Below are positions 1 through 33,269 of a DNA stretch of 64,000 nucleotides, piece by piece. This DNA comes from Dictyostelium discoideum. Its lineage: Eukaryota. A program made the position numbers and the translations under genes. How positions within the stretch are numbered: the first letter of the stretch is position 1; the number at the start of each line of letters is the position of its first letter. The stretch is taken from contig CM000151.3 in assembly GCA_000004695.1 (NCBI GenBank), positions 1,952,001 to 2,016,000 of the forward strand, read 5' to 3'. The notes beneath the pieces were generated by a model that saw nothing but the letters and a program-made list of their open reading frames with translations, was not told where the DNA came from and did not search any database.

Positions 1-611
1 TAATCTTTTTTAAAAAAAATAATAATAATAATAATAAAAAGAAGAAAAAAAGGAAAGAAAAGAACAAAAAAAATAAAAAATTATTAATATTAATCTTTTA
101 TTTTTTAAAAAAAAAAAATAAAAAAAAAATAAAAAAATATTATAATTATAAATGTGTATTATTTAATTGTTCTTTTTATAGACATAAATCACCTCCTCAA
201 AACTCACACACACACTTTGATAAATAAAAACAAATAATTCTCAACGCCATAAACATCTTTTTTTTCAATAAAAATGAAATATGTTGTGACAGAATTTATA
301 TAAAATGTTTTATTTTTAATTTATATCAACTTAAACCATAAAAAAATTTAAAAAAAAAAAAAAGAGCAAATTTGGGGTTTGGTATACAAAATTGGAAAAA
401 AAAACAAAAAAAAACAATTAAATGAAACACATTTTCATAAATTGTTGTGTATATATATATTTTTTATTCTCTTACATGAGATATATATATATATATATTT
501 TTTTTTATAAAATTTATTTATTTATGTTTATATATTTTTTATTTTTTTTTTATTTTTTTTATTTTTTTTTTTTTTTCTTTAAAACAAACTTGAGAAATTT
601 AATAAATAATT

Positions 612-1335
612 TTAATCTAACTTAAGTTCGAATTTCTCCCAATGTACACCATTTTTATCAACGACAACAATATCTGCAAAATCACCAGTGTAAATATCTC
701 TTTCACCAGCAGATGTAATTGAATCCTTTACAAATGAAACAACTTGTTCACATGATACATCTTTATTTCCTTCTACAATTTGTTGATTAAATTTAGCAAC
801 CTTTTTAATTGAAATAGATGTTAAAAATCAATAAATTAATAAATGTGATATAAATATTATTATTATTATTACTATTATTTTATATATAAATTACTTACTT
901 GGTTATCGAGTAATGGAATTACTAATTGATTACCAGAACCTTGAGAAGAGTATTTAACTCTTTCATGACTACCTACAGCATCATAAGTCCAAATCCAACC
1001 TTCACCTTGTTCGTCTACACCAGCAACTAAATTGAAAGTATAGTATGGGAAAAATCTTTTATAGTACAATGTGTTTGATAAGAATTGAGCGATTGCTGGT
1101 GTACTCATTGGTTTACCATGCTCTTTTTCAAATGATTCCAACATTGATTTTAAACGTTTTTGTAATGCAATTGTATCTGCTTGCATACCTGATGTTGCTA
1201 AAACACATTTCTTTGTTCTAAATTAAATTAATTAATTTTAATTTTAATTTTATCAATTACAATTAATCATATTAATAATTATTAAAATATTTTTATTGAT
1301 ATATATGTATTGTTGATTAAATTATCGTAATTATT

Positions 1336-1368
<33 letters not shown>

Positions 1369-1771
1369 AATTAGTTAATATTTTATTAATTTATAATAAT
1401 TATAATAAAAAAAGTTAAAAAAAAAAGTTACATACAATTGAAAAATTTTAGTATATTTTCTAGTTTGAATACCATAACCACCATCAGACATACGTGTATC
1501 ACCAGCAATAACACAATAATCTTTACCAGCAACTGCCAAAACTGTACTATAATTTTTTATATTTTAAAGGGTGAAAAAAAGATAAATAAAGTAATTAGTA
1601 ATTCTAATTCTCTATTTTAAAATAATAATAATAACCATATATCAGGATTAAAGTAGATTCTTTTTATTAATTTACTTACCCTCCATTATCTACATATGCC
1701 TCAAATCTTCCATGACTGATTGGTTGTTGTTTATCTTTTTCTGGTAATGCACTTAATTTTAAAGTTTCCAT
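612..1771 (-). CDS. psmB1: 20S proteasome subunit beta type-1 (PSMB1 orthologue), 4 exons: join(1680..1771, 1436..1546, 899..1217, 612..800) on the minus strand; 236 aa
   Basis: Manual splicing of minus-strand ORFs gives METLKLSALPEKDKQQPISHGRFEAYVDNGG / TVLAVAGKDYCVIAGDTRMSDGGYGIQTRKYTKIFQL / TKKCVLATSGMQADTIALQKRL...FFPYYTFNLVAGVDEQGEGWIWTYDAVGSHERVKYSSQGSGNQLVIPLLDNQ / VAKFNQQIVEGNKDV...AGERDIYTGDFADIVVVDKNGVHWEKFELKLD*. It is collinear with human PSMB1 ([31 protein letters not shown]...; [34 protein letters not shown]...PLLDNQVGFKN...ERDVYTGDAL). Donors are gtaagt/gtatgt and the reading phase is consistent across all junctions. Confidence 0.85.
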
Positions 1772-2019
1772 ATTTAAATATTTTAATATATATATATATA
1801 TACAAGATGATGATAATAATTGATGAAAATAAAAAAAATTAAGAAAAAAAGAGAATGAAATTGTAATATATACAAAATAAAAAAAACAAAAATTAAATTG
1901 ATGAAAATAAAAAAAAAAAAAAAAATAAAAAATTAAAAAAAAATGAAAGTGGTGAGTTCAAAAAAAAAAATTAAAAAAAAATAAATTAAAAAAAAAAAAT
2001 TAAAAAAAAAAAAAAATAA

Positions 2020-2050
<31 letters not shown>

Positions 2051-2200
2051 TATTTTATAAAAAATAAAAAAGAAATAATCTTTAAATTAAAAAACTTAAG
2101 GTTTTTTTTTTTTTTTCAAAATATATTCCAAAGTAATAATTTTATTTCATTTATATATATATATATTTTTGGTGTTTTTTTTTTTTTTTTTGGATGTGTT

Positions 2201-2231
<31 letters not shown>

Positions 2232-2957
2232 TTGGAAATCCATTTTTATGATAAATTGCCAAAACATTAATATATTAATATATTCTTCAACTTTAAACAA
2301 TTGTGAATATCTTTTTTTAGATTATACAAATATCATTAAAATAAATAACTCTAACCCAAGTTTTTTTGTGATCCCAACCATATCCAATTCTCAAATAATT
2401 ATTAATTTGGAAAATAAATAAAATAAAATAAAATAAAATAAAATAAAATAAAATAGAATAAAATAAAATAAAAAAATATGAACATATCAAAAAATAAAAT
2501 AAATAAAAAATAAATTTGAATGAAAAAAAAAAAAAAAAAAAAGTGATTAATAACCGATCAGAGATAGATTAGAGTTTTAAAAAAAAATAAAAAAAAAAAA
2601 AAAAATAAATTTTTGATATTTTTTCAAAATTAAAAAATTAAAAAAAATAAAAAAAAATAAAAAAAAAAAAAAATTTTTTTTGACCACACACAAAAAAAAA
2701 AAAAAAAAAAAATTTTAAAAACAAATACAATAAAGGTTTATAAATCTACCAAAAAAAAAAATAATTTGTTTTTTTTTTTTTTTTTTTTTTTATAAAAAAA
2801 ACAATTTTGCATCTATTTATTATTTATTTATTTATTATAAATAAAACCATTGTTCGATCAAAAACATAATTTTATAAAAAAAGATAAATAAACCTATATA
2901 TATATATTTATAAAAACTCAAAAACCTGTAATATTAGAATCAACAATAAATAATAAA
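1772..2957. promoter_or_regulatory. Divergent intergenic/promoter region between psmB1 (minus) and the PH-domain gene (plus); extremely A/T rich with long poly(dA)/(dT) tracts and an (AAAAT)n array at about 2411-2472
   Basis: Start codons of the two flanking genes face away from each other. The region has no credible ORF, and the ORF-track entry 2194..2421 is low-complexity translation. Confidence 0.35.
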
Positions 2958-3176
2958 ATGACACAAAATGGATTAAAAGAATCTAAAGATGGAAAAGTAC
3001 GTATAAAACTATTTTATATATATATATATATATTACTATACTATTCTCGGTTATTAAATTTTTAATATTAAATATTATATGATTAATTCAAAAAAAAAAA
3101 AAAAAAAAAAAAAAACAAAATTCAAAATTCAAAATGAAATTTTCTATATAAAATAATTAATTAATTAATTAATTAA

Positions 3177-3227
<51 letters not shown>

Positions 3228-4208
3228 ATGAAATTTAGACAATAAAAGAAGGCAGTGTAATTAAACAAGGTGGTAGAATAAAGAATTGGAAAAAAAGATG
3301 GTGTGTTTTAAATGAGGAAGGATTACATTATTTTAAATCTCAACATAGTATAGAAAAAGGTTCAATACTGTTGGCAGAGATAATATCAGTGGAGGGAGAT
3401 GATAAACCTGCAACTAAAAGAAAATATTGTTTCAAAGTTACAACCATCGATAGAAAATATAGAATATGTGCAACTGATTCATTGGATAGAGATGAATGGA
3501 TAAATTCAATTGAAAAACTTTTAAAATCAAAAGGATTATATAATATTGAAAATAATAATAATGGAACTGGTACAATTATAAAGGTACCTATATTATATTA
3601 ATGTATATATCTATACCCCCACCTAATTCACACACATATTAACATATTATGGATGAACATTTTTATTTTGTTTTATTTTTTATTAGACTTCAAAAAATGT
3701 AGATATTAATAAATTAAGGAGTGAAGAAGATGATGATTCAGAATCATCAACACATTCAAATAGTTATTTAGGTAGTAATTCAGTACCATCAATGAAAAAA
3801 ATAATTTTAACACCAATTATGGTATCATTAAAAGAAAAGTTTTCACAAAAAACATTTGCTGCAGAGTTAAATAGAAAGGTTAGTTGTTGTTGTTGTTTTT
3901 ATTATTATTATTATCATTACAAGACAGAGAGAGAGGGTTATTAATATGATGTTATGTTTATTAAAAAAAAAAAAAAAAAAAATTTATAGAAAGATTTATT
4001 ATCATTAGAAGAGACAGAAAGAGTTTTATCACTTTTAGATTCATATATTGATGGCGAAGTTGATGAATCACAAATTGAAAGAGATAGGGAAATTAAATTA
4101 ATTGTTAAACAAATTGCTCAAATGAAACAGGCTGAAATGGATGCAATAGAAAATAAATACAATCAAAAACGATTAGAGATTTTAGAAGAAATTAAAAGAA
4201 GGTCTTAA
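2958..4208 (+). CDS. PH (pleckstrin homology) domain protein, 4 exons: join(2958..2996, 3239..3583, 3687..3878, 3990..4208)
   Basis: Exon 2 encodes TIKEGSVIKQGGRIKNWKKRWCVLNEEGLHYFKSQ...KYCFKVTTIDRKYRICATDSLDRDEWINSIEKLL, a canonical PH fold (basic GG-R-KNWKKRWFVL strand, C-terminal W in the helix). Donors are gtacgt/gtacct/gttagt, acceptors are (t)nAG, and all phases are consistent. The C-terminal exon is coiled-coil-like (QIAQMKQAEMDAIENKYNQKRLEILEEIKRRS*). Confidence 0.7.
3130..3232. repeat. (TAAT)n/(AAAT)n tetranucleotide microsatellite inside intron 1 of the PH-domain gene
   Basis: Direct reading: attaattaattaattaattaataaataaataaataaataaataaataaataaataaataaataaataaatg. Confidence 0.8.
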
Positions 4209-4230
4209 TTAAAATTATAAGCTATCAACG

Positions 4231-4264
<34 letters not shown>

Positions 4265-4373
4265 TCAATTAAACCAATTAATGAATCATTATAAAGAAAT
4301 CAAAAAAAAACCCAAAACCAGTGTAAATCCAAAAAAAAAAATAAAAAAAAAATAAAAAAAAATAATAGAAATT

Positions 4374-4404
<31 letters not shown>

Positions 4405-5483
4405 AAAACATAAAAAGAAATTTATGAACCATAAAATAAAACCCACTTTTCTTCATTTTCTTGGACAATAAAAGATAAAAAAAAGGCAAATTTTTAAAAG
4501 AGGGTGTTAATTGAAATTTCTTTTTTTTTTTTTTGTTTTAAAAGTGATATTGTTTTTTTTTTTTTTATAATAATAGAAATAATTTAAAAATAAAAAAAAA
4601 TAAAAAATAAAAAAAAATCATAAAAGGGTTTAGTTTTTTATTTTTATTCATTTATATGTGTCACTCAACCACAGAGGGTATGACAATATTTTACTTTAAT
4701 ATAATTTTCTTTAAAAAAAAAAATAAAAAAATAAAAAACAAAAAAAAATAAAAAAGAGTGAAAAGAAAGCGATAATTATAATAAAAAAAAAAATTATAAT
4801 TTTTTAAACATTTGGCTATTTATAACCCACAATTAAATCATTTTTTTATTTTTTTTTTTTTTATTTTTTTATTTTTATTATTTTTTTTTTTTTTTTTGTA
4901 TTCTTTTTTTTTTATTATTTACACAATTATTTAGGTAACTATATATAATTAAATATATATTTTTTTTTAAAAATTTATATAAATCTAAATATAATTGTCA
5001 TTTATTAATATAAAAAAAGAAATCTTGTTATCGTTTAAAAAATAAAAGGTGTGTAAAACCAAAAATAAAAAAAAAAAAAAATAAAAATAAAAAAAAAATA
5101 AAAAAAAAAAAAAATCCTAAAAAATTTTTTTTAATTTTTTTTAGGAATCCAATTCATTTCGCTTAGAAAAAAAAAAAAAAAAAAAAAAAAAAATTAAAAA
5201 TAGTTATATAATAAAATTTCATAATAATAATAATAATAACAATTAATTTAACTAATAATACTAATAACAATTAATTATAAAAAAAAAAGAATAATCTAAA
5301 AAAATCAAAAAAAAAAATAATATTTTAAAATAATTTGTAATTTGTAATAATTTGTAATTTTATATTAATAAAGAAAAAAAAAAAAAAAAAAAAACAAAAA
5401 CAAAAACAAAAAAAAAAAATTTTAAAAAAAAAAAAAACATTTTTTTTTAATACATATAAATAAATAAATAAATAAATAAATAA

Positions 5484-7368
5484 ATGAGTGGTGTAGGAGG
5501 TGAATCAGTACATTTGAGAAGATCATCAACAACTGCGACAACCACAGGATCTAGTAAAAGTAGTTTAAATATAAGTAAGTCAGTTTCACCTACTGGTAAT
5601 AAAGCAGTTTCACCCATGAGTTCACCAAACTCATTGCAAAGTGGTGCAACTCCTACAATAGCACAATTACAAAGTTTATTAAAACAACAACAACAACCAA
5701 ATCATTCAATAACAACAAATAATAATAATAATAAATCAGTATCGGTTGAAATTGATGATTTAAAATCTCAACTACAACATTCAAATATAAACGATACCTT
5801 TAATGAAGATGAAGAAATTGAAGAAGTAACAGACGAGGTTATCATTAATCATGATTATCATTCATCTGAAGATGAATATGAAGATGATGAAGATGAAGAT
5901 GAAAATAATAATAGTGTAAATAATAATAGTAATAATAATAGTAATAATAATAATAATAACAATACAAGTATAAGTAGTGCACATAGTTGTGAAAGTATAG
6001 CAGAGGAAGAGGAACTTACAGCATCACCAATTTTATCAAGACAATATAGTTATACAATTGGTCATGGTACAAAACCTGATGTTGTTTTATCAATTGGCGG
6101 TGGATTCCATTCATCACCAAGATCAAATAGATCAGAGAGTACCATAGTTCATGAAGATGATCTCACAAATCAAAATGATAAAGTTATAAATGCAAAAGAT
6201 AAAATCTCTTCAGATTATAAAAGAATGATGGAAGATCCTGAAGCATTTAGAAATGAAAAATTAAAACAACGTAAATCAAAATTCTTTACAAAAAAAGGTT
6301 TGTTAAAAATATATATATATACACATAAAATAATAATATTAACTTTTTTATTTTATTTTTTTTTATTTAAAAAAAAATAGATTTAGAAGAAATACCATTT
6401 AATCCATCATCAGGTACTCAATTAAGATCAACATTATTTCAACAATTTATGAATGAAAAGATACAAATGATATCAGAGAATCCAGAGAAATATAAAAGCG
6501 AATTAATGAAATTTTATAAACAAAATTTGAAACCACAAGTACCTAAATCACCACAATCAAGTGGATCATTATCAACACATTCCGATAAATTAAAGACATC
6601 ATCGTCATTACAAAGAAGTAGATCAGTTAGTCAACCACCAGTTGTGACTGGTAATAGCAAGAATGCAATTGGTTCATTGGATACTATTTTAGAAAAGGAG
6701 AGAAAGAGGGATGGAAATCAAGATAGACAATTACCAATACTATTCACAAAGTGTGTTGATTTCCTCTCAAATGATGAAGCTTTAAAAACTGAAGGTCTTT
6801 TTAGAGTTGCAGGTAATTCAAGTGAAGTTGAAGATTTAATGAAATCAATATTACTCTATGGTTCCGATATTCCAAGTAATTGTTGTTATCATGTAGTTTC
6901 AAATATGTTAAAAAAGTTTTTACGTCAATTATCAACTCCAGTTTTCACTTTTAAATATCATAATGATTTCATCCAAACAATGAGTAAGTTTTAATTAATT
7001 TTATTCAAAATTACATATATATATCTATATTAATTTTATTTTATTAACTTTTTTTATTATTTTTTTTATTATTTTTTTTTCAAGAATTAAATAATGATGA
7101 AGAAAGAATTAAAGCAATTAAAGAGATTTTAAAATTAATACCACCAGTTAATCAATTATTAATTAAAGAGTTGATGAAATTTTTAGTAAAAGTAACTAGT
7201 TTTTCAAATGTTAATATGATGCATGCTCATAATTTAGGTTTAATGTTTGGTCCAAATATGTTAAAGGCGCCATCAGATTCTGAAATGAATGCAATTTCAA
7301 TGTTGGATGCTGGTAATCAAGTAATCACTTTATTAATTGAAAATTATAATTTATTTTATGATAATTAA
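5484..7368 (+). CDS. RhoGAP-domain protein, 3 exons: join(5484..6297, 6381..6983, 7085..7368)
   Basis: Exons 2-3 encode LPILFTKCVDFLSNDEALKTEGLFRVAGNSSEVEDLMKSI...LKKFLRQLSTPVFTF...LIKELMKFLVKVTSFSNVNMMHAHNLGLMFGPNMLK. This is the RhoGAP signature, including the arginine-finger GLFRVAG and the MxxxNLAxVFGP-like motif. The N-terminus is Ser/Thr/Asn-rich low complexity. Splice phases were checked: the exon 1-2 junction rebuilds codon GAT, and exon 3 enters at a ...tttcaag|AA acceptor. Confidence 0.75.
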
Positions 7369-7474
7369 TATTTAATAATTAATTGATTAAAAATAATAAT
7401 AAATTGAAAAAAAAAAAAAAAAAAAAAAAAATCAAATTTGTAACAACACTCACTAAACAATATCAGTTATAAAA

Positions 7475-7484
<10 letters not shown>

Positions 7485-7557
<73 letters not shown>
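7485..7557. repeat. Non-coding (AAT)n microsatellite, about 24 uninterrupted units, in the intergenic region downstream of the RhoGAP gene
   Basis: Direct reading of aataataat... from about 7485 to 7557. It is the same motif that encodes poly-Asn inside neighbouring genes. Confidence 0.85.
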
Positions 7558-7558
<1 letters not shown>

Positions 7559-8283
7559 GATTAATTATTATAATAAAAATAATATTAAAAACTTTTTATA
7601 TAATTAAATTTAATATTGAATAAAATACCATTTATTGAGAAATGATTGGAATGCCGTTTTTTTTATTAATTTTTTATTGTACTAACTTGGAATTAATTTT
7701 AATATTAAAAAAAATAAAAAAAAAAAATAATGTTTATTTTTTTGTACAATTACTTGATTGAATTTAAATTAAGGAACCATAAATGATTTCAATTGATATT
7801 TCTAGTCGGGTAAAAATATCAATGAAATATTTTACAGTTCATTAAAATAAATCCAACAATTATGTTTTTTGTACTTCTAAAAAAAACCTTTTTTTTTTTT
7901 CTTTTATTTTTTATTTTTTTTTTTATATATATATAAAATAAAAATGAATAAAAAAAAAAAAAAAAAATAATTATAAATAGAAAAAACAAAAAGGAAAAAA
8001 AAAATAAAAATAAAATAAAAAAAATAAAAAAAAAATAAAATAAATTATCAAAAATTTATTTATTATTATTTTTTTTTACAAAATGGGATTTTCTTCCCTT
8101 TTTGTAATTTTCATTTAATTTGGTAGTGTCTACACAGAAAATATTGGGTTTTTTTTTGTTGTTCAGAGTCTGAAAAGAAAAAAAAAAAACAGGGGGGGTG
8201 GAGGGGACTAAATATAGTGGTTGACATTTATTTGTGATAAAAATTGAAAAAAACAAAAAAATGAAATTATAATAAAAACAAAT

Positions 8284-8322
<39 letters not shown>

Positions 8323-8672
8323 AAAAAAAAAAAAAAAAAAAAAGGAAACCTTTTTTAAATATCTATTTTTAGGGTATAAAAAATTTTTTTGATAAAAATA
8401 TATAATTATTCAGTTAAATTTTTTTTTTTTTTTTTAACAATAATTTTGAAAATAATTAAAGAAAAAAAAAGGGAAAATAATTAATTCCTTTTTTAATAAT
8501 AAAATCCAATGAAATTTTTAATATGATAAAAAAAAAAAAAAAAGTAGAGGTTTTTTTTGAATTTATGATTTTTTTTTTTTTTTTTAGATGAGGAAACTGA
8601 TGAGAAAACCGATTAGAATTTTTCTTTTTTTTATTTTTTTTTTTTTATTTTTATTTTTAATTTGTTCTCTCT

Positions 8673-10949
8673 ATGGATATTTTATATTTTAAAGTTTTTA
8701 AAAATATATATATAAACAAGAAAATTTGGAGTTTTGTAAAAAGATATGACAAAACATCAAAAAGGTATGATGAAATAATATCAATTAGTGAATTGCTTTC
8801 GCTTCATAATAATAAAAATAGAATGAAAATTACAGATCAAGATAGTAGTTTAATTGAACTATTAAAATATAAAATTAAAAGAGGAGATATAATTTTATTT
8901 GATTTTAATATTCAACAATTAATACAAGTTTTTTCTAAAAATGAACAAATTAAACATGATAGAGAATTCTTTAGATGTTTAGTAACCTACTATAAAGAGG
9001 AATTAATTTTTATACCAAATTTATTAGAATCATTTTGTAAATATGGTAATTTAATAGCATTAGAAGAAATTACAAATTTAGAAAAAAGCAATAACAACAA
9101 CAAATATAGTAATAATAATAATAATAAAATTAATAAAATTATATATTATGAAAATTATAAGGTTTCAAAGAAAGCATTTGATTTAGCAATTGAAGTTGGT
9201 GAATTTAAAATTATGGATTTTTTATTCAAGAATCGTAATGAAGGTTATACAGAAAGAGATATTCTTGAGAATATATTTTTAGAAAGTAATAGTAGTAAAA
9301 TGTGTTTAGTTTTCTTAAAGTATGCATTAAATACAATGTCTATAGATTTGTCAAAATGTAAATCAATTAATATAGATTGTTATTACCATTTACAGGATGA
9401 TTTAGAAATTGCAAATAAATTAAATGAATTTGGGTTAATTCATTTTCAAGGAATATCTTATCTTTATCATAATATACCTTTTCCAATTTTAAATACACCA
9501 AATGAATTATTAAATATAGTTAAATCATTTTTATTTATTTTAAAAAAGTATATTTATATAAAACAAGAAGATTACAATGAAGATTATTTTAATAATGAAA
9601 ATTTTGAATATCCAATACCAAAAAGACCACCAATTGAATTAATTGAAAATTTTATAAATAATGAATGTTTATTTACAAATGAAGAATTAGAATTTGATAT
9701 TATTTTAAATTTTAAAGAAACTGATAAAAGAATTGAAAAATTAATTCATTGGTATATATTATTATTTGAACCCTATGGTTTATTCTCTGAATCTGTTGAT
9801 TTAATTTATTCATATATTGCAAAGTATACTAATGATACAATTGAAGATAAACAATTGGTTAATAGAATTTTTAAAAATTCAAATGATTGGGATAAAAATT
9901 TAATTTTTACAATAATATTTTTAAATTGTAATTTTAATTTATTTAATTCATTTTTTAATCGTTTCAATAATTATAGTTATAATAATATTGCTATAAATGG
10001 TATTAAAATTGGAATTTCTTCTTTATTTTAAATAAATTCAAATGAAAAGATTTTACAATTTCTACAATTATTTTATAATAATTATGATTTTAATAGTAAT
10101 TTAAAAAATGAAATTTTAAATGTCATTTATCAACATTTAAAATCAAAATCAAAATTAGAATTATTTTCTCAATTATTTGATTTATTACCTATAAAATTTA
10201 AAGAATATTGTTTACTCAATTTAAATGATGAAAAGAAAATAAATAATAATAATAATATTAATAATATTAATAATATAACAACAATAATTTTACCACAAAT
10301 AGAAACAAAATTATTAATTGAAAAAAAAATAAATGACAATGATTATGGTTATGATAAAAATAAAAAAATGAAAATTGACCCAATAGAGTTAATTAAATTA
10401 CAAAGATTCGAAGAATTATTTGAAAAATATTTTACTTATTATGATGATAACACTAAAGCTTTACTTGAAAATGAAAAACTTTATATTGAAATTGGTAATA
10501 AATGTGTACAATTTGATGAATTACTTGATAGGTTTATTAAAGTATTAATTAATTTTAATTTATTGGAAAATTCAAAAGAGTTTATAATAAATTCAATTTT
10601 AATTAAATCAATTAAAAATGGATTTTTAAAGAATTTACAATACTTTTTAACAACTGATAATAGAAATTTATTTAAAATTTCAAATGAAATTATTATAAAG
10701 ATTTTATTAAATTCAGCAATTATTAATGATAATATTACAATGGTTTCTTATTTACTTTCAATTTTATTTCCTTTTTTATTTTTTAATAACAATCAAATAA
10801 TATCATCTCAAACAATTCCAAGAATTTCAACAGTAACAAAAGAAGAAAAAGAATTGTTATTAAGTATTAATGAACAATTAAATTCTATAAAATTAATTAC
10901 AAAAATGGAAAATTATTTAAAAAAAACAATACTTTTTTTTGATTTATAA
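8673..10949 (+). CDS. Member 1 of a lineage-specific paralogous family (ILYFKVFKN... N-terminus). A single reading frame is open from 8673 to 10949 except for one in-frame TAA at 10029..10031. The product would be about 758 aa, so the gene is either disrupted or two separate ORFs
   Basis: ORF 8673..10031 and ORF 10368..10949 are in the same frame (all coordinates are 0 mod 3). Codon-by-codon reading of 10032..10367 shows no stop in 112 codons of roughly 80% AT DNA, giving ...INSNEKILQFLQLFYNNYDFNSNLKNEILNVIYQHLKSKSKLELFSQLFDLLPIKFKEYCLLNLNDEKKINNNNNINNINNITTIILPQIETKLLIEKKINDNDYGYDKNKKMKIDP.... That region is therefore coding. The N-terminal motif MDILYFKVFKNIYINKKIWSFV matches the other two paralogues in the window. 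Confidence 0.6.
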
Positions 10950-11586
10950 ATCAAAATTTTAAATATATTTTTTTTTTTTTCCTAATAATATAAAATAAAC
11001 CTATAATTTAATTTCAAAAAAAAAAAAAAAAAAAAAAAAAAGAAATTTCAAGATTTAATTAATTATATCTATTTCCAAGTCTATGTTATCATACTTTTTT
11101 TCATTTTTTTTTTTATAATTAATTATACCAAAAATAATCAGTTTTTAAAAACTGATTATTTACATCATTACCATAATGATCTTCAAAAAAATTTTTTATT
11201 TTATATAATTTTTTTTTTATATTTTTATTTTTATTTTGGTTTTTTTTGGTTTTTTGGTTTTTTTTGGTTTTTTTTTTGGTTTTTAGATGAATTTAAAAAT
11301 ATCTTTTAAAATTATTTTTGGAAAAAATAAAGTTGAAATTAGAAGGATTGGGAGATTGATTCAAGTTAATTTTTTTTTTTAATTATTTTTTATTTTTTAT
11401 TTTTAATTTTTTAATTTTTTTTTTTTTTGGGGTTGAAAATTTTTTTTTTAATTTTTTATTTTTTGTTTTTTAATTTTTTTTAATTTTTTTTTTTAATACA
11501 AAAACAGTACGTTTTTATATCAATGCAGCCAAATAAATACACATACATATATTGCTTTTCATATTAATAATAATAAAAAATAATTT

Positions 11587-11628
<42 letters not shown>

Positions 11629-11631
<3 letters not shown>

Positions 11632-11694
11632 AATAATGAAGACACTATTAACAATAATAGTATTATATTTACCAATAACAACATTATTAATAAT

Positions 11695-11788
<94 letters not shown>

Positions 11789-12501
11789 TTGAAAGCGATA
11801 GTGAAGTTTTATTTTGGAAAGTTTTTCATAATAAATTTTTATTGTATTATATATTGAAATGCGTATCATTGCTACCATTAGAATTTACAGATACTGAATT
11901 GTATTATGTTGGAAATAGATCAAAATTTTCAAATATTAAATCACTTTATTGGATGTTATATCATAAACAATTCACACTTGTAATTGATAAATTAATATCA
12001 AATCAAGTGGTTTATATATCACCAGTTTCAATTGAATATTTAATTGAAAAATGTAAACAACCAACAACAACAACAACAACAACAACTACAACTACAACAA
12101 CTACTACTACTACAATTACAACAAAAACAACAACAACCACAGAAGAACAAGAGAATTTATTAAAACAATATAAACAAATTTATCAACTTTTAATTGAAAA
12201 AAATAAAAAAGAATTACAAAGTGTAAATTTAGTAGATAGCTGTATTAGAAATGATAATACATTAGCATTACCATTATTCTTAACAGATTCAACAAATTTA
12301 ATATTACCACAAACCATTACTACATGTATAAAAAATTGTTCCTCTGATACATTATCATTACTACTTTCATCAATTAATCAAAATTCAACAATACCTTTAT
12401 CAGAATATATAAATCCACGTCAAACAATTTTAGATGCAACTTTTAATGAGCAATATAGAGATGAAATGATTAAATTTATATTGGATTATAAATATAAATC
12501 A

Positions 12502-12587
<86 letters not shown>

Positions 12588-13236
12588 TGATGATGATAAT
12601 GATAATAATAATAATGGTGCAGATGAAAATTTTAAAAAAATATTTGAACCATTAAATAATACAACTATACCAAATTTCTCATTAATAAAATCAAAACAAT
12701 TAAAGTTAAGAATGGTTAAAGAATTTTCAAATTTCTTTTACTTGGATCCAATTTCACCAAGTTATCAAATTTTATCACAATCAATTGAAGAATGTAAATC
12801 ATATATTCAATTATTATATATAAAGATTGGTGTTGGTATACCAAAACATTTATTATCAGAAATTAATCAAATTGAAAAGAAATATAATAATACTGATCAA
12901 AATAATAATCAATTAATAATTCAAAAATTGAAAGCAATTGTTATTAAAGAGACTGGATCATTAGATTTCTATTTACAATATTTATTAGAGTATGATCAAA
13001 TCGTTGAAAATCATCAACATAATCAACCACAGAAATTATTAATTTGTAATTACACATTAGCCTTATTTTCATTAAATGGTTTAAAATATTTAGTTAATGA
13101 AAGATATCAAATTACTGATACATCATATCGTAGAGATGAAATTAATAATATCTTTAAAAAATATCGTGGTCAAATTTTAAAAAATCAATCAAAAATTATT
13201 GAATTCTTTCAATTTTATTTTCAAAAATTAAAAATA

Positions 13237-13297
<61 letters not shown>

Positions 13298-13894
13298 GTA
13301 ATAATAATAGTAATAATAATAATAATAATATAAATAATAATAAAAGAAATTCAGATATATTAGGATTAAAAAAATGGGAAGATATTATTAAATTTTTAGT
13401 AATTAATTGTTCAATTGAAACATTGAATGAATTAAAAGGAATTGAAGGTTTTCCAATTGAACATTTCTTATGTATTAATCATAGGGATATTCATGATCCA
13501 TTGAAATATGATTGGTTTGTTAAATGTATTTTATTGGAGAATAGAAAGATGCCACATTTCAGATCAACATTACAGTATATTAAAGATCAAGAGAATTTCT
13601 ACCCACATTCATGGCAATTAATAACAAAATTAGAATCGAAATTAAAGATTAAATTAACTGACGAATATTATCATTTATTCATTCATTCAATTTTAACTTA
13701 TGATTTAGAATCAATTTTAAAATTGAATACTTTAAATTTAAAATTTAAAGATCAATCTTATTATCAATCAAATGGTAATGTTGGTTTTGCAAGTTCTAAT
13801 AATTCTGTACTTTTAAATAATGTTGTAAATGATGAAAATTATAATAATAATGACCATATTGATGAATATTATCATTATAATAGTAATAAAAATT

Positions 13895-13978
<84 letters not shown>

Positions 13979-15303
13979 GAAGAAATAACAATAATAATAA
14001 GAATAGATATAGATTTAGAAATAGATATGGTATTGATGTTGGTGCAATGATTATTGGTAGTAGTGGTGGTGGTGGTGGAGGTGGAGGTGGTGGAGGTGGT
14101 GTCAATAATGATGAAGAAAATGAGGATAATAATAGTAATATTGATAATATTAATAATAGTGATGAAAATGATGAAAATTGTGAAATTAAAACTAAATTTA
14201 AAATACCAGAAACATTTGATAAAGTTTTAAATTTATTTACTTATTTTAATATAACACAATTTAAATCATTTACAGCACAAATTTTTAAGAATATGATAAA
14301 GCTATTTTTAAATAGTCCTGGTATTACTTTGGAAGAGTTATCAATGGTACCTTGTAATTTCAATATTTTTAAGAGGGAATCATTATATCTATTATTGACA
14401 TTCATTTATCAAATTAAATTTGAAAAGGTTTGTTTCATAATAAAGAATACTAAATTTCAATTCAATCTAAATGGTATTCAATTCCCACCAGATTCAATCA
14501 TTAATAAATTTCATAGAGATCATCAATTCGATGATAATTCAGTTGATCCAAAAACTTTTAAATTACTAAATTTTAAAAATCATTTACAAATAATTCAAAT
14601 TATAAATTCATTATTTGATTGGATATCATTAGTTACAAATTTAGAACAACAACAACAACAACAACAAAATAATAATGGTAATAATAATTTTTATGATCAA
14701 AAGAAAATGTTAACTTTGTTTTTACCAGTTTTTGATTATTTATATAAGAGATTATTACAAACTAGTGGTACAACATTAAAGGATATTGAAATGGTAATAG
14801 TTTTATTTAAAAAGTTTGGTATTACAATTCAAGAGGATTTCTTTAACATTTTCTTTTATTTCCTTATAAAATCAAATAAATTTAAAAAATATTTCAATTA
14901 TAAATTATCAAATCTATTAACAACACCATATGATTTAATTGATAAAAAGAAACAACCAAAATTAGAGAAATATTTTAATAGTAGTGCTTTCTCTTTTAAT
15001 CAAATTTTAAATACAAATTTTTATGATTTATTCTTAATTTTAAAAAATCATTTAAATTATCAAATTAATTTAATGCCACCACAACCTCAACAACCTCAAC
15101 AACCTCAACAACCTCATCATCAACAACAACAACAACACTACCTTAATTTTAATAATTTCATTGAAAATATTAATAATCATAATAATCATAGTATTCAACA
15201 AATTGAAAATCTTTATCATCAAGCTAATAGTATTCATGCACAATATAATAATAATAATAATAACAACAATAATAATAACAATAATAATAATAATAACAAC
15301 AAC

Positions 15304-15361
<58 letters not shown>

Positions 15362-16170
15362 GTGGTAATGATGAAATTAAAAATAAATTAAATCAAAAGG
15401 ATAGAATGATTGAAGATTTGAAATTTTTATTAGATATTGGATTAATTGGTTTAGCATTAAAATTAATTAGAGAGGAAGAAGTTTTATCAAAGGAAGAATT
15501 GAAACAAGTTATTGAAGAAATCTTAAAATCATTAGTATCGATCATATCAGTTGAAGATTTTGAATGTTTTATTCAAGATGGTTTCATTGAAATTAATGAA
15601 TTATTAAGTTTTGCTATAATAACTTCAAGATTAGATTTAATTAAAATAATTTTAGAAGATTATAATAGTGATGAAATTAATAATCAAAATGATAATGATG
15701 ATTTATTATCAAAAATTTCAAATTATTCATGTATATTTGAAACATGCCAAAATGATATTATCATTTATTTATTTTCAAAATTTAGACAACAATTAACAAA
15801 TTATGATCAAAGTAGATGGCAAGTTATTGATTCAAGTGAACCCGATTTATTCGATATTTCATTCATGAATGGTAATTTAGAGATAACTCAATTATTATTA
15901 AGTTTTTATCCAATTTATAGTGGTAATGGTAATGGTAATGGTAATAATAGTAGTAATAATAATAATAATAATAATAATGGTTGTAGATTTAAATTTAAAG
16001 AAGAAATAATTCAAAAAACTTTATTAAAAGGTTGTTTTCCTATTGTTAAATTTTATTATGAAAATGGTTTCTTCAGTAATCAATTGGTTGATTCAATTAG
16101 ACAATTACCAATTTCAAAGTTTTTACCTTGGTTAACAAATAAAAGAAAATTTGAAGAATTAGAATTTTAA
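11629..16170 (+). CDS. Member 2 of the same paralogous family; a single-exon ORF of 1513 aa with five long poly-Asn (AAT)n tracts, a poly-Thr tract, a poly-Gly tract and PQQ repeats
   Basis: It is one long ORF in AT-rich DNA. The N-terminal block SDSEVLFWKVFHNKFLLYYILKCVSLLPLEF...LYWMLYHKQFTLVIDKLISNQ is similar to ILFWKVFKNNFLKRQIFYLMLNMDIEF...FKWMIKNNLLDLIKFKLEKNQ at 24953 and to ILYFKVFKNIYINKKIWSFV at 8673. Leu/Ile/Asn-rich repeat-like modules lie downstream. No recognisable enzymatic motif is present. Confidence 0.7.
11695..11788 (+). repeat. (AAT)n of about 31 units, encoding poly-Asn near the N-terminus of family member 2. Further (AAT)n arrays of 20-35 units occur at about 12496-12594, 13240-13330, 13900-13978, 15247-15360 (same gene), 18274-18345 (FHA-BRCT gene), 23026-23140 (ARM-BTB gene) and 25523-25615 (family member 3)
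   Basis: Direct reading. The minus-strand ORFs over these tracts (poly-L, poly-Y, poly-I and so on) are frame and antisense artefacts. Confidence 0.85.
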
Positions 16171-16946
16171 ATAATAATAATAAATATAATTAATAAATTA
16201 ATAAAAAAGTTATAACAAATATGTTTCCTTTTTTTTTTGTTTTTTTTTTTTTAACAAAAAGTTTATTTTTAGAATTTAATTATTTGTTGCTCTGTACCTG
16301 GAATTTAAAAAACATAAGTACCAATCAAATGATAGAAAAAGGAAAGATTTATCATTATTATTATGGTTAATTATTTGAATACAGTGCCAGAGATTTTTAA
16401 TTACATTTTTGAGCGTATTGTGGTTAATGTCTCTTTTCCCATCTTAATATTTTTCTGCTTTGGCACATTCAACAAACCAACATGGTTAATTAATAAATTT
16501 TTGAAATAAAATAAAAAACAATTATTAAAAAATTTATTTATTAAAAAAAAAAAAAAAACAACTTAAATCTGTTTTGATAAACTTTTTTTTTAATTGTTTA
16601 TTTTTTATTTTTCTTCTTCTTCACTAAATTAATCTTTACCCAAAGAAATATATATATATATTTAAAAAAAATAATAAAAAAAAGTGTTAATTTGTTTTTA
16701 TTAAATATTTTGTTTTTATTTTTATTTTTATTTTTTTTTTTTCCACGAAAAAAAGCGCAAGTTTATTTTTTTTATTTTTTTTTATTTTTTTTATTATTTT
16801 TTAAAAACCAATTATGTCTTTCAGATAGTCGACTATCAAATAATAATTTTCAATTTGCTTAATAAAAAAAGGGTTACAATATAAATAATAATAATAATAA
16901 TACTAAATAATAATAAATAAAAAAAACATTAATATTAATAAAAAAA

Positions 16947-18274
16947 ATGTCAAAAAATAGTAATGTTACAATAGTTGATCCAGTATTAAGATTAAAACCA
17001 ACAATTGGTGGTGACCCATCTCACCCATTCTCTGATTTTAAAATTGAAATAGGTGTAAATAAAATTGGTAGAGCATCATCAAATAATATATACTTAAAAG
17101 GTGATACTTCAGTTTCAAATTATCATGCTCAACTAGGTAATTATTTATTTTTAAAATAAAAAAAATAAAAAATAAAAAAATAAAAAAATAAAAAATAAAA
17201 AAATAAAAAAATAAAAAAATAAAAAAATAAAAAATAAAATAATTCTAACTCATTTATTTATATAATTTATGTGTATATTTTTTTTTAGTATTTAATGGAG
17301 CATTCTTTTTAATTAAAGATTTAAATAGTTTAAATAAAACTATGGTTCAATATAGACCAAATGAAGATACAACTGTCTTAAAACCAAATTTAGAGTATCC
17401 AATTATTAATGGTAGTAAAATTACATTTGGCTCTGCAACAATGACACTCAGTTATATGGAAGTTCATAATAGTAATTATTCAAATGATACAATAAATACA
17501 GAGAAAAATTTTAGTTATACTGATAATAGATTAGTACCTCCATCACCACCTGAACCAAAACAACAACAACAACAACAGCAACAACAAATTAATAAACCAC
17601 AACCAATACAAAATATAAACACCACAACCACAACCACAACTACTACAACTACAACCACAGATACAGGTGCATCACTCCTATCTCCAAAATCATCAAATAA
17701 CAACAACAACAACAGCAACAACAACAGCAATACAACCACCACAACTTCATCATCTCCATCTCACCTTTTAACCACCTCTAATTCTGAAATAAAAGATATT
17801 GAAAATAATGTACACCATATAAATAGCAATAACAAAAGAAAACAAGAAGATGAAAATGTTGATAGTTTAGGTAGTTTTGACGACGATGGCAATCTGGTAA
17901 CTGTTAAAAAGCACAAATTAAATAAAATAATAGATGAAGAACACGAAGAACATGAAGAGTATGAACAAAAAGAACTAAAAGAAAAAGAAAAAGAAAAAGA
18001 AAAAGAAAAAGAAAAGAAAAAAGAAATTAAAAAGACAGTATCAAAATATAATATAGAAATTGAAGATGATTTAGAAATGGAGGAAGATGAAAAATTAAAT
18101 AACAATCAAAGTTATGATAGAACTGAACAACAAAATGATAATAATAATGATAATGATAATATTGATAATATGATGGACGAAGAGGATGATGAAATTTCTT
18201 CATCACCTCAACCAATTAGAAAAGAAAATAAAATAGTTAAAAACGATAAAAAAAAAGAGAAAAAAGAAGAAACC

Positions 18275-18347
<73 letters not shown>

Positions 18348-19369
18348 GTATTAGTAATACAAGTCAAAATAGTATAACAAGTCAACAAAGTGATATTAGC
18401 AATAATAGTAGTGGAAGTGTTTGTAAAAGGGGTAAAAGAGGTGCTGGAAAAGTAAATGATGTATATATCAATAATATAGGTATTGATATTGTAAATAGTA
18501 AAAGAAAAACATCAAAACCTGAAAGATTAGAAGAACAAATTTTACAAAAATCATCTTCATCATTATCTTCATCTTCTTCATTACCCTCGTCATCTTCATC
18601 CTCCTCATCATCATCTTCATTTGATAATAAAGAGAAAGAAGAAATAATTAATAAATCACCAAAAAAACAACAAACACCAAAAACAACAACAACAACAACA
18701 AAAACAACTACAAAAACAACATCATCAACAGCAAAAGCAAATTCAAATATAAAGATATTATTTTCAATGTTTTCAGATGATGTTGTAAAGAATTTTGAAT
18801 CAATTTGTTTAAAACTTGGTGGTTCATTAGCAAATAATTCAAAAGAATGTACACATTTGGTTAGTGATGAAATGAAAAGATCGAAAAAGATATTGGAGTG
18901 TATTTCATTTGGTAAAATTATTGTAACCTCTAAATGGTTAAAGGAAAGTAAGAAATCGAATCATTTCTTACCAGAATCACAATACCTTTTAAAGGATGAA
19001 AAAGCAGAATCAGAGTGGGATTTTAATTTGGAGAAATCTTTATCAATCGCTAGAAATAGGGTTAGTGGTAGTGCTGCTTTAAAACCGTTGTTTAATAATA
19101 TGTTGTTTTTCATAACAAAGAATTCAATACCACCAAAGGAATTCCTTAAAGAGATTATTGAAATCAATGGTGGTAATTTATTGGATGATATCAAAGATGC
19201 TGAGAACCAAGAGAATCAAAAAAAAATTATAGCCGTAATTGCAAATGCTGATAAAGATAAAAGGTCTTTAAAAAAATGGTCTGATAATTCTTATAAAGTT
19301 TTAAAAGGAGATTTCATTTTATTATCTGTACTTTCTCAACATTTAATTTATGAAGGTTGTGAAATTTAA
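16947..19369 (+). CDS. MDC1-like DNA-damage mediator: N-terminal FHA domain, a long Ser/Thr/Asn/Glu-rich middle, and C-terminal tandem BRCT domains. 2 exons: join(16947..17136, 17289..19369)
   Basis: The FHA domain is FKIEIGVNKIGRASSNNIYLKGDTSVSNYHAQLG|VFNGAFFLIKDLNSLNKTMVQYRPNEDTTVLKPNLEYPIINGSKITFGSATM (G-R core, S..HA, NGT-type beta-hairpin, ..I.FG), spanning a 152-nt gtaatt...tttttag intron. The C-terminus KLGGSLANNSKECTHLVSDEMKRSKKILECISFGKIIVTSKWLKESKKSNHFLPESQYLLKDEKAESEWDFNLEKSLSIARNR aligns closely with the gamma-H2AX-binding tandem BRCT of human MDC1 ([62 protein letters not shown]...FGFSLQDALSRARE). A second BRCT follows (MLFFITKNSIPPKEFLKEIIEINGGNLL...). Confidence 0.7.
17158..17236. 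repeat. (AAAAAATAAAAAAT)-type A-rich minisatellite inside the FHA-BRCT gene intron
   Basis: Direct reading: aaaaaataaaaaataaaaaaataaaaaaataaaaaataaaaaaataaaaaaataaaaaaataaaaaata. Confidence 0.75.
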
Positions 19370-21023
19370 AATAATAATAATAATTAAAATAAAATGGAAA
19401 AAAAAAATTAAATTTATAATTAATTAAAAAAAAAAAAAAAAAAAAAAATTTATTTTTTTAATTGTAATAGGTAATCATTAAATTTCTATATACTGAAATA
19501 AATAAAAAAATGAGATAAAAAAAAAAAAAAAAAAAAAAAAACCACATTCCGATTACAACAGATAAAGCCATAAAATTAAATTGAAGTGTGGTAAAGATAA
19601 AAATAAATTAAAAAAATTAAAATGGTGTTTGTGGGGGTGAGAATAAAAAAAAAATAAAAAAAAAAACAATTAAAAATTAAAATAAAAAAAAAAAAAAAAA
19701 ACAATAACATTTTTGACCATATTTTATAAAAAGTTCATAAAAGGAAAAATCGATTTGGTTTTTTTATTTTTATTTTTATTTTTATTTTTTTTTTTTGTTG
19801 ATTTATTATTTTTAATTTTTTTTTTTTTTTTATTTTATTATTTTTTTTTAAAAAAAAATAAATAGTTTTAAAGAAAAAAAAAAAAAATAGTTTTACATAT
19901 TTATTTGCATTCTTTTTTTTATTTTCAAATTATTATTTTTTTTTTTTGTGTGTTCATTGTTTTTAATCAAAAAATAAAAAAATAAAAAAATAAATAAATA
20001 AAAAAATAAATAAAATTTTATTTTCAGTTTTTTTTTTTTTTTTATAATAATCAAATCAGCGATAAATTTGTTTTTTATTAATATTATTATTGTTTTTTTT
20101 TATTTTTTAAATTAAAAATCTTTATTAATAAGAATTAATTATTATATAATTAAATTTTATAAATTTTGGGTTTTTTTTTTTTTTTTTGTCATAAATTATT
20201 TTATTATTTTTTATTATTTTTTTGCATACCCGAATAATTATAATTTATTCAAATTAACGTACGATTTTCAATAGCATGTAAGTTTCATAGTTTTTAACCA
20301 TAGTAGATGTAACAAACCACTTTTTTTTATTTATTTTTTTAATTGTTTTTTTTTTTTCACGTGCAGAAAAAAAAAAAAAAAAAAATGGTGTTTGTATTTT
20401 TGATTTGTTTGTTGCAAATTATTACAAATGTCAAAAAATAATTTTTTTTATTTAATTTAATTTTTTTATTTATTTATTTTTATTTATATTTTTTTTTTTT
20501 TTTTTTAATGTATTAAAATAATTATTTGTTAAAAAAAAATAAAAATTTTGGATATTATTTTTTGGTTTTTTTCAATTTTTTTTTTTTATTGGTTTTTTTT
20601 TATTTTTTTTTTCTAAACATTAATTGTTAAAACCAAAAAAAAAAAAAAAATTAATATCCAAAAAAAAAAAAAAAAAGCAAAAATAGGATAATATTCACAG
20701 GTAAAAATAAATTAAATTGATCAAAAGGGAAATTTTGTCAGGTAAATTATTTTTTTTTTTTCTTTTAGGATTCCTAAAAAAAAAAAAAAGTAAAATAAAA
20801 TAAATAAAAAAAAATTAAAAAAAAATTTTTATTTGTAAATTCAAGTTCTCTTGTTATTACAAATTTAATCAAACAAATAAGGGTTACCACCACACACCCA
20901 ATAAAAAAAAAAAAAAATTATTAACAAACAACTAGTTGGTACATAATTATATAAATTAATATATCAAAAATAATATTAATATACAAAAAATTATCATTAA
21001 AACATTTTCTGTCCACCAAACTA

Positions 21024-21059
<36 letters not shown>

Positions 21060-22053
21060 AAAAAAAAAAAAAAAAAAAAAAATTAATTGTTGTGTGTTTG
21101 AAGTTGGGTGTTTTCGGTAAAAATTTTTTTTTTTTTTTTTGGTGGTGCATTTAATAGAAATGTTGTTTGGGTAGATAGAAAAAATGAGTGGTGTGTGTGA
21201 ATAATCTAATTTTATCAATATATAATAATAATAATTATAATAATAATAATAATAATGCAATATATTTGCACTTTTTTTTTTTTTTTTTAATTTCACTTTT
21301 TTTAATTTTTTTTTTTTTAATATACAATAATTTATTATGTAATAATTTAATAATCACATCAATAATCAATTTATATATATTTAATAATTTTAATAATTAT
21401 TATTTTTACTACACACTATTTTTTTTTTTTTTTTTTTTTTCACTTTAAAAATTACAGATTTATTTTGTCACAAAAAAAAACAAAAACAAAAAAACAATTG
21501 TTATATATGTATATGTATATATATATGTATATGTATATTAAATAAACTTATAAAAAATTAAAATTTCATTTATTATAACATTTTTTTTAAAAAAAAAAAA
21601 AAAAATTAATATTAAATATAAAATTACAAGCGAAAAAAACAAAAAAGAATTTTAAAATATTAAATTACATTCATATAATCAAAGAAATCTCACCACATGA
21701 AAAAATAAAAAAATAAATAAATAAATAAAAAATAAAAAAATAAAAAATAAAAAAATAAAAAAAATAAAAAAAAAAAACAACTCCCAATTCAACCATAATA
21801 ATAAATAATAAATAATACACCCTTTTTTATCTTTTTTTATTTTTTTTTTTATTTTTTTTTATTATTTTTATTTTTTTTAAATTATTATATTATTAATTAT
21901 TAATATCATTATTATTTTAATATTCCCTCAGTAACAATAAATCATTTTTCTTAGTTTGAATTTTTAAATAATAAAAACAAAGCGCTGTAATAATTTAAAA
22001 TTTTCCATTAATAGTTAATAAATAAATTAATAAATAAATATAATAATTAAAAA
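19370..22053. other. 2.7-kb gene-free, extremely A/T-rich intergenic block containing a few complex-sequence islands (about 19545-19640, 20229-20320, 20880-20945)
   Basis: No ORF longer than about 90 aa except homopolymer translations. The islands include ccacattccgattacaacagataaagccataaaattaaattgaagtgtggtaaag and cccgaataattataatttattcaaattaacgtacgattttcaatagcatgtaagtttcatagtttttaaccatagtagatgtaacaaaccac. Confidence 0.4.
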
Positions 22054-22420
22054 ATGATGGCAGAAACAGCAGAGGATTCAGATCCAATCTCAGAAGCAGT
22101 TGGGTAAGATTATAAAGTTATATTAAAGAAAAAAAAAAAAAATAAAATAAAAAACTAGGGTTATATATATATATTATATACTAATTAATATTTTTTTTAT
22201 TTTTATTTTATATTTTTTTTTTTTTTCTAAATTAATTAATGAATTATTAGATTCATTAGTAATATACTATCAAGTGATACAGAATTACAATATAAAGGAT
22301 TAAAAGGGTTAATGATATGTCCAACTTCACTTGTTGTTGAGTTATTCAAAAATCCAGCTTACTTTTATCATATAAAAAAACATCCAAATCATAAATTTAA
22401 TAACCATAATAATCATAATG

Positions 22421-22452
<32 letters not shown>

Positions 22453-23094
22453 CCATCACCAACATCTTCAACTACATCATCAAATGGCTCATCACCTAAT
22501 AATGGAAATTCTCCAAATCATGGTTCATCATCACCTAATAATAATAATAATAATAACAATAATAACAATAATAACAATAATGTATCATCTAATACTTCAT
22601 CATCATCATCCTCTTCATCGCCACATTCATCATCATCACCAACTAATTGCCCATCGACTTTACCTCATGGAGTTGATCCATGTAATCAATGTTCACCAAA
22701 TGGGTCACCAAAATATTCAGATATTGATTTCGATAAAATCACAAAAAAAAGAAAAAGCAATATAAAAAGTTTAATTGAACTTTGTTTATCCGAAAATAGA
22801 AAAGTTCAATCATCTGCATTAAGATTATTATGGCATTTATCTGCACAAGGTATTTTTTAAAAAATTAAAAAAAACAATTTCTAAAAATAATAATAATAAT
22901 TTACTAATTTAATTTTTTTCTTTTCTATAATTAATTTAGCTGATTTAAAAGTTTTATTATTTGAAGAAGGTGTTTTAGATAAATTAAAATCGTTAATGTT
23001 TAGTGATTTTGAAAAATATAATATTAATAATAATAATAATAATAATAGTAAATACCCCAATAATAATAATAACAATAATAATAATAATAATAAC

Positions 23095-23137
<43 letters not shown>

Positions 23138-24440: not shown

Positions 24441-24498
24441 ATCAATTAATTAAAAATAATAATCAAAATCATAATCAAAATCATATAATCATAATCAT

Positions 24499-24535
<37 letters not shown>

Positions 24536-24952
24536 AAAAAAAAAAAAAAAAAATAAAAAAAAATAAAAAAGAAATAAATAATCATTGAAATTTATAATTG
24601 TTTAAACATTAAATTAAAATGAAATAAAATAAATAAAAAAAATAAATTAAAACTTTATTTAAAAAAAAAATACCAATAGGAGGAAGTCGACTTCCTAATG
24701 CTTTTATTTATAATATTATTAGTTTCTAATGTGTCCATAACCTGATAATTGTTTTTTTTTAAAAACTAAATAAAAAAAAAAAAAAAGTTAAAAAATAATA
24801 TCTCAATTTTGAGACATTAAATATCTTTTTTTTAATTTTTTTTATTTTTTTTTTATATTTTTTTTTTTTTGATTATCTTTTTTTTTTTTCATTTTTTATT
24901 TTCAATTTTTTTTTTTTTTTTTTTTTTAAAAACAATAAGAATACATAAAGAA

Positions 24953-25520
24953 ATGAATGAAGATTTAACAAAATTAAAGAGAGAAATCATACAACAACAA
25001 CCAATGGATTATAACGAAATTTTATTTTGGAAAGTTTTTAAAAATAATTTTTTAAAAAGACAAATCTTTTATTTAATGTTGAATATGGATATTGAATTTC
25101 AAAATCATTCAAAATATTTTACTGAAAATAGAATTAAATTTGAGAATGTTTACTCATTTAAATGGATGATAAAAAATAATTTATTAGATTTAATAAAATT
25201 TAAATTGGAAAAAAACCAATATATTGATATTAGAAATAGTGATATCTGTAATTTCATTAAATCTGTCAAAATCCTCGGTGGACCTTCAAAAATAACAAAT
25301 AATCATTTAATTATCTTTAAATTATTAATTAATCAATACCAAATTCTATTTGAAAATCAACATGTTAGATTATTAGTAAGACTTGATAATCATCAATTTT
25401 TACAAATACTATTATCAGAATCAATTAAAAAATTTAAAATCACTTCAAGTCATATTTCATTTTCAATTAAAAAATGTTCAACATTAACATTAGATTTATT
25501 AAATAAATATATAAATAAAG

Positions 25521-25615
<95 letters not shown>

Positions 25616-28006: not shown

Positions 28007-28097
28007 TAGAAAATAAAAAAATAAAATAAAATAAATAAATTTAATTCAAATATTTTGTTTTTATTAATATTATTTTGATTTTTTTTTTTTTTTTTTT

Positions 28098-28997: not shown

Positions 28998-29005
28998 TTT
29001 TTTTA

Positions 29006-29036
<31 letters not shown>

Positions 29037-31155: not shown

Positions 31156-31283
31156 TTTATTTTATTTTTATTTTTATTTTTATTTTATTAAATTTTATTT
31201 TATTTTATTTTATTTTATTTTATTTCTATTGTAACTTAAACTAATTAAATTATTTATTTTTTATTTTTTATTTATTTATTTTT

Positions 31284-31342
<59 letters not shown>

Positions 31343-33207: not shown

Positions 33208-33269
33208 ATTATTATTTTTAATTTAATCTATTATTATTATTATTATTTTTTATTTTTTTATTTTTTTTT

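Follow-up and report, generated by a model that had tools for sequence, protein, structure and literature searches.

Resequencing of AX4 lines of Dictyostelium discoideum has uncovered 1,916 differences from the reference that are common to the lines, which the authors put down either to errors in the reference or to an ancestor clone that differed from it (Saxer et al. 2012, PMC3466296). A lesion of another kind is described for axeB/NF1: it likewise affects a gene of the laboratory strains and is missing from relatives, yet it is a selected deletion-insertion, verified by polymerase chain reaction in several stocks, and it is identical in Ax2 and AX4, pointing to a common axenic ancestor (Bloomfield et al. 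2015, PMC4374526). Here, we analyze a stretch of 64,000 nucleotides of D. discoideum AX4 chromosome 2 (contig CM000151.3, positions 1,952,001 to 2,016,000; hereafter the window, strongly AT-rich with a G+C content of 12 to 34%), in which a single in-frame TAA at 10029-10031 interrupts a conserved gene. The locus resembles known false nonsense codons of Sanger-era references (compare Saxer et al. 2012, PMC3466296), in that the difference is private to the reference and the sister strain and other relatives carry a sense codon, in that clustered private differences copying a neighboring base surround it, and in that automatic annotation called two open reading frames (ORFs). Unlike the axeB lesion, it is a point change that is not found in an AX2-like assembly, has no known selection behind it, and lies among error-like differences. 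We consider it very probable, from the sequence comparisons given below, that the TAA stems from faulty base calling or consensus formation in the AX4 chromosome 2 reference.

A single reading frame and its private stop codon

The frame starts at the ATG at 8673, with the nearest in-frame stop upstream at 8658, and runs to a terminal TAA at 10947-10949. As the preliminary description had reported, it is open throughout except for the TAA at 10029-10031 (codon 453), and our coordinates and stop counts agree: between 8673 and 10949 we find 2 stops in the gene frame versus 38 to 154 in each of the other five frames. The first in-frame ATG downstream of the internal TAA lies at 10368. At the local base composition, the probability that the 112 codons in between remain open by chance is ~9e-7, and that for all 306 codons past the TAA is ~3e-17; these 306 codons contain no additional stops and no frameshifts. 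The open stretch downstream of the stop is not attributable to chance. The AX4 annotation divides this frame into two genes, DDB_G0272692 (402 amino acids [aa]) and DDB_G0272821 (193 aa), and exact look-ups of the proteins retrieve the reference record alone. The features of the locus are as follows.

8673..10949, forward strand: whole gene, a single exon of 758 sense-codon positions plus the terminal TAA, broken solely by the TAA at codon 453.
8673..8822, forward strand: first 50 codons (MDILYFKVFKN...), absent from the DDB_G0272692 model and conserved in all orthologs.
8823..10031, forward strand: DDB_G0272692 model, 402 aa (XP_644894.1, Q86IG8); the recorded protein equals the window translation from Met-51 and ends at the TAA.
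10029..10031, forward strand: in-frame TAA; position 10029 is T in the AX4 record and G in all five other genomes (GAA, Glu).
10032..10367, forward strand: 112 sense codons (336 nucleotides [nt]), unannotated in AX4 and coding in all orthologs.
10368..10949, forward strand: DDB_G0272821 model, 193 aa (XP_644895.1, Q86IG7); the recorded protein is identical to the ORF and forms the C-terminal part of the same gene.

A protein search recovered orthologs from five Dictyostelium assemblies (L001 to L005), and both this search and a profile search confine full-length relatives to the D. discoideum species group.

L001 and L002: divergent "D. discoideum" assemblies of ~90% nucleotide identity, with proteins of 758 and 761 aa.
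L003: GCA_054883475.1, with a model of 708 aa whose ORF reaches an upstream ATG, giving 758 codons.
L004: "D. cf. discoideum," 758 aa.
L005: D. dimigraforme, 777 aa.

All five orthologs are uninterrupted, unspliced single-exon ORFs of 758 to 777 codons, located in the same order of neighbors (a proteasome subunit, a PH-domain gene, a gene of ~600 aa, the studied gene, and a gene of ~1,500 aa). The codon aligned with the TAA is GAA (Glu) in each of them, within the motif GIKIGISSLF-E-(I/L)NSNEK. With GAA at this place in five out of five genomes, the locus represents a single conserved ORF whose internal stop occurs in the AX4 record alone. The earlier proposal that the segment downstream of the stop is coding is thereby borne out by one continuous ORF in five other genomes.

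The true start of the gene is probably the ATG at 8673, because the first 50 codons are conserved in the orthologs. The ratio of nonsynonymous to synonymous substitution rates (dN/dS) for these codons is 0.14 to 0.29 in six of the seven pairwise comparisons and 0.80 in the seventh. The later start at Met-51 (8823) is copied in the AX2 model, with the longer form annotated in the remaining four assemblies. Among the intact orthologs, dN/dS amounts to 0.2 to 0.5 upstream of codon 453 versus 0.5 to 1.0 downstream (codons 454 to 758), a comparison tried here as a test of pseudogenization that does not tell a recent mutation apart from an error. Faster evolution of the C-terminal third is seen in all lineages; this part is only weakly constrained, yet its frame is open in every genome.

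Substitutions private to the AX4 reference

Of the five assemblies, L003 comes closest, with 99.65% identity over 20,962 bp of the window. It belongs to a set (Holland et al. 2025, PRJNA1300491; PMC12745789) comprising the laboratory strain AX2-214 and wild tropical isolates picked for divergence, and the same authors give an AX4/AX2 identity of 99.5% at another locus. Because of this identity, and because AX2-214 is the one laboratory strain of the project, we infer that L003 and L006 represent AX2-214. Across window positions 1..39016, compared with L003 and L006 (AX2-like assembly GCA_054883475.1), the AX4 reference shows 37 substitutions, 28 of which fall within positions 1 to 20,962 and 9 more up to 39,016. 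Within the studied gene, the window and L003 differ at exactly five sites, which span 902 bp: the T at 10029 and the following four.

9996, forward strand: A in the reference (AAT, Asn), G in all five other genomes (GAT, Asp).
10194, forward strand: A in the reference (AAA, Lys), G in all five other genomes (GAA, Glu).
10501, forward strand: A in the reference (AAA, Lys), G in all five other genomes (AGA, Arg).
10897, forward strand: T in the reference (ATT, Ile), C in all five other genomes (ACT/ACC, Thr, or TCT, Ser).

At every one of the five sites L003 matches the four outgroups, meaning that the changes are derived in the AX4 reference. The same polarity extends over the first 21 kb, where at least 19 of the 28 substitutions are clearly derived in the reference and none clearly in L003, wherever outgroups align. 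Two natural haplotypes would share derived alleles about equally, and on the aligned genomes this one-sided polarity therefore rules out ordinary polymorphism.

The substitutions also display a distinctive spectrum. For 28 of the 28 substitutions in the first 21 kb, one of the flanking bases is the same as the reference base, compared to a mean of 13.3 (standard deviation, 2.4) under a null in which the from-to type of each substitution is kept and its site randomized; none of the 20,000 simulations reaches 28. Over 39 kb, the neighbor is copied in 34 of 37 substitutions. These include seven A-to-C changes of the form aC to CC (4312, 4318, 4329, 8349, 31936, 32196, and 32366) and three T-to-G changes beside a G, types that oppose the A/T mutational bias and would each copy a neighbor by chance in 18% of cases. 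In addition, isolated G or C bases are leveled into flanking A/T runs, for example at 3797/3799, where ATGAAGACAATA is recorded as ATGAAAAAAATA. The changes in the studied gene fall into the same pattern: AgA is recorded as AAA at three sites, TgA as TTA at the stop, and AcT as ATT. The A-to-C and T-to-G changes resemble peak carry-over in dye-terminator traces, as generally known from Sanger artifacts, and the neighbor-copy differences look like a systematic base-calling artifact. They are furthermore clustered (3 in 18 bp, 3 in 20 bp, 4 in 57 bp, and 5 in 902 bp) and leave a difference-free stretch of 8 kb at 11688-19741, a distribution that fits low-quality read segments.

The number of differences can be set against the expected mutation load. 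With a shared axenic ancestor, a substitution rate of 2.9e-11 per site per generation (Saxer et al. 2012, PMC3466296), and a contribution from nitrosoguanidine (NTG) mutagenesis of just 13 to 34 variants per genome (PMC5052037), real differences between AX2 and AX4 in 39 kb are expected to number roughly 0.01 to 0.05, versus the 37 observed.

A probable base-call error weighed against its alternatives

If the TAA is a base-call error, the true GAA (Glu-453) would have been recorded as TAA when the isolated G between T and A was taken as a copy of its neighbor, and real AX4 cells would carry G at 10029, as follows if L003 and L006 are AX2-214. Because of the false stop, automatic annotation would have divided the gene into DDB_G0272692 and DDB_G0272821, leaving 112 codons unannotated, and the first model would have been begun 50 codons too late; beneath the split would lie one unremarkable gene of 758 codons in a single exon, reaching from the ATG at 8673 to the TAA at 10947-10949. 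The sense codon in the closest assembly, as well as in the four more distant ones, marks the stop as a private variant of the reference, and the excess of private, clustered, neighbor-copy differences around it constitutes a non-biological signature. Among the four options that the preliminary description had left side by side, a sequencing error is thus the best supported, although the original codon is GAA and not the AAA or CAA suggested there.

Several observations weigh against this interpretation, and most of them bear on the main alternative, namely that the stop is a real and very young nonsense mutation private to the AX3/AX4 laboratory lineage, with GAA changed to TAA and four missense changes nearby after the split from AX2. 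As a possible source, a mutational cluster caused by NTG or other DNA damage could be envisioned, which would leave a truncated protein of 452 residues and a decaying 3' remnant. AX3 was itself obtained by selection following mutagenesis. Taken alone, the five changes within the gene fit a biological or mutagen spectrum: all of them affect G/C sites (P ~1e-4 for random sites), and four are G:C-to-A:T transitions, as in the NTG and spontaneous spectra, with one G-to-T. All are missense or nonsense, none synonymous, and they are confined to the final 954 bp, at the stop or close to it (P ~0.013 under uniform placement), as relaxed constraint or a single clustered event would give; errors would account equally well for four missense and zero synonymous changes close to or past the stop. 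The neighbor-copy pattern of these five changes by themselves is not significant (about 0.09 expected). In contrast to described Sanger-era reference errors, the base at 10029 in AX4 cells is deduced here from other assemblies and not from AX4 reads, and the assignment of L003 to AX2-214 draws on identity and the project description, not on a strain label. Moreover, the local rate of ~1 difference per kb lies several-fold above the genome-wide value of ~1.7e-4 per callable site, from which clustered and poorly mappable sites were excluded (Saxer et al. 2012, PMC3466296).

A mutation in the laboratory lineage nonetheless appears improbable to us. Slightly less probable still is the variant in which AX4 truly carries the TAA and the four missense changes owing to G:C-to-A:T damage in the AX3/AX4 lineage that was strand-biased and clustered in 902 bp, for example from NTG or single-strand damage. 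Only ~0.001 to 0.01 real lineage-specific mutations are expected in a gene of 2.3 kb, Ax2 and AX4 separated too recently for drift to bring in four neutral changes, and the stop arises from a G-to-T transversion, a change outside the NTG type. A further 32 reference-private substitutions in the 39 kb combine a clearly non-biological spectrum with the neighbor-copy signature, and since these show the same signature, it would be unparsimonious to invoke a separate biological origin for only the five within the gene. A pseudogene or a strain polymorphism, as raised earlier, is not supported, and an old evolutionary pseudogene or a polymorphism segregating in wild D. discoideum is the least likely explanation of all: apart from the stop's occurrence in the reference, nothing speaks for it, the nearest genome (99.65% identical) carries GAA as do four more distant ones, the downstream frame is free of frameshifts and further stops, the derived alleles all lie on the reference side, unlike between two natural haplotypes, and the stop sits among error-like substitutions private to the reference.

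It is also highly unlikely, if marginally less so, that the locus comprises two genuine genes, a short isoform with a separately initiated downstream ORF, or a stop bypassed via an intron or readthrough. Two gene models are indeed annotated in AX4, but the 336 nt separating the stop from the following ATG show conservation as coding sequence, the ORF is continuous and unspliced in five genomes, with Glu in place of the stop, and no features of an intergenic region are found between the two annotated parts. The separately initiated downstream gene proposed before is hence a matter of AX4 annotation, its apparent gap being conserved coding sequence. Regarding splicing, we reproduce exactly the earlier finding that the pair from GT at 10000 to AG at 10049 spans 50 nt, shifts the frame, and runs into a TAA at 10076; the conclusion that no rescue intron exists had nevertheless missed in-frame GT..AG pairs across the stop, such as 10000..10158 (159 nt, donor GTATTA). 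In a systematic intron scan these in-frame candidates are not credible, as donors such as GTATTA and GTTATA match a strong GTAAGT-type donor poorly and splicing would remove at least 53 conserved codons that are unspliced in every ortholog. The TAA-A context is a strong terminator and not a readthrough context. A base-call error in the reference is consequently the reading that we retain.

The encoded protein, neighboring genes, and the reference

The product is best explained as an all-helical, Asn/Ile/Leu-rich protein with degenerate ankyrin-like repeats, found only in the D. discoideum species group. A Pfam scan returned no family at threshold, the best match being Ank_3 at residues 677 to 695 (13.5 bits versus a gathering score of 22.3; E = 0.11). 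A profile of three orthologs, searched against 1.84 billion representative proteins, retrieved its own cluster and weak ankyrin-like matches, among them multi-stretch matches at positions ~107 to 206 to 12 proteins (E values of 8e-6 to 6e-4). Six of these 12 were scanned with Pfam, and all six are bona fide ankyrin-repeat proteins. An AlphaFold2 model built on a three-sequence alignment is all-helical and unreliable (mean predicted local distance difference test score, 40.7; predicted template modeling score, 0.26). The protein therefore shares with ankyrin-repeat proteins (Pfam clan Ank: PF00023, PF12796, and PF13606) the all-helical prediction and the weak profile and Ank_3 matches, but differs from them in its score below Pfam gathering, its low-confidence model, and relatives limited to the D. 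discoideum group. A literature search on DDB_G0272692, DDB_G0272821, and "dimigraforme" returned no papers, and the supplementary material published with the de novo transcriptome (PMC5282741) mentions neither gene.

The genes starting at 11629 and 24953 had been regarded as paralogs of the studied gene. This does not hold, as BLASTP against the studied gene gives nonsignificant E values of 1.0 to 1.5 and a tblastn search of the window with the studied protein finds the gene itself only; a paralog comparison with these two genes was rejected for lack of detectable homology. What they have in common with it is just an N-terminal motif of ~12 residues (L-x-F-K-V-F-x-N-K-F/Y), with the short F-W-K-V-F-x-N motif as the only element shared by all three. 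The two large Asn-rich genes (11629..16170 and 24953..28006) are paralogs of each other over their N-terminal ~190 residues (31% identity; E value, 1e-10), and no Pfam domains were found in them.

Reference-private differences also occur in other genes of the window. Positions 3797, 3799, and 3851 lie inside the span of the PH-domain gene, where ATGAAAAAAATA and CAAAAAACA in the reference stand against ATGAAGACAATA and CAAAATACA in the five other genomes; more reference errors, changing conserved codons, are the probable cause. Three reference-private A-to-T changes within 20 bp (11668, 11684, and 11687) affect an AAT repeat (poly-Asn) at the 5' end of a gene of 1,513 codons. The reference further differs from the AX2-like assembly at 26342-26343 and 27965 in ORF 24953..28006 and at 31936, 32196, and 32366 in ORF 31840..33207. 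For these two ORFs the exact AX4 products are not on record, while AX2 models of equal lengths (1017 and 455 aa) are, and their proteins possibly differ between records through the same kind of error.

The value of this result is mainly corrective, concerning both the annotation and the reference. DDB_G0272692 and DDB_G0272821 (Q86IG8 and Q86IG7) should merge into one 758-residue protein starting at the ATG at 8673, and position 10029 of the window, together with four nearby bases of the AX4 chromosome 2 reference, is in need of checking. Beyond this locus, the neighbor-copy signature could serve to flag reference errors genome-wide in this much-used model organism, including false stops, false missense "variants," and split gene models. 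Should the stop be real, AX4 would differ from AX2 in a conserved gene, which would be relevant to strain-dependent phenotypes; in the standard laboratory strain, an ankyrin-like gene that is conserved and retained in AX2 would then be naturally knocked out or truncated.

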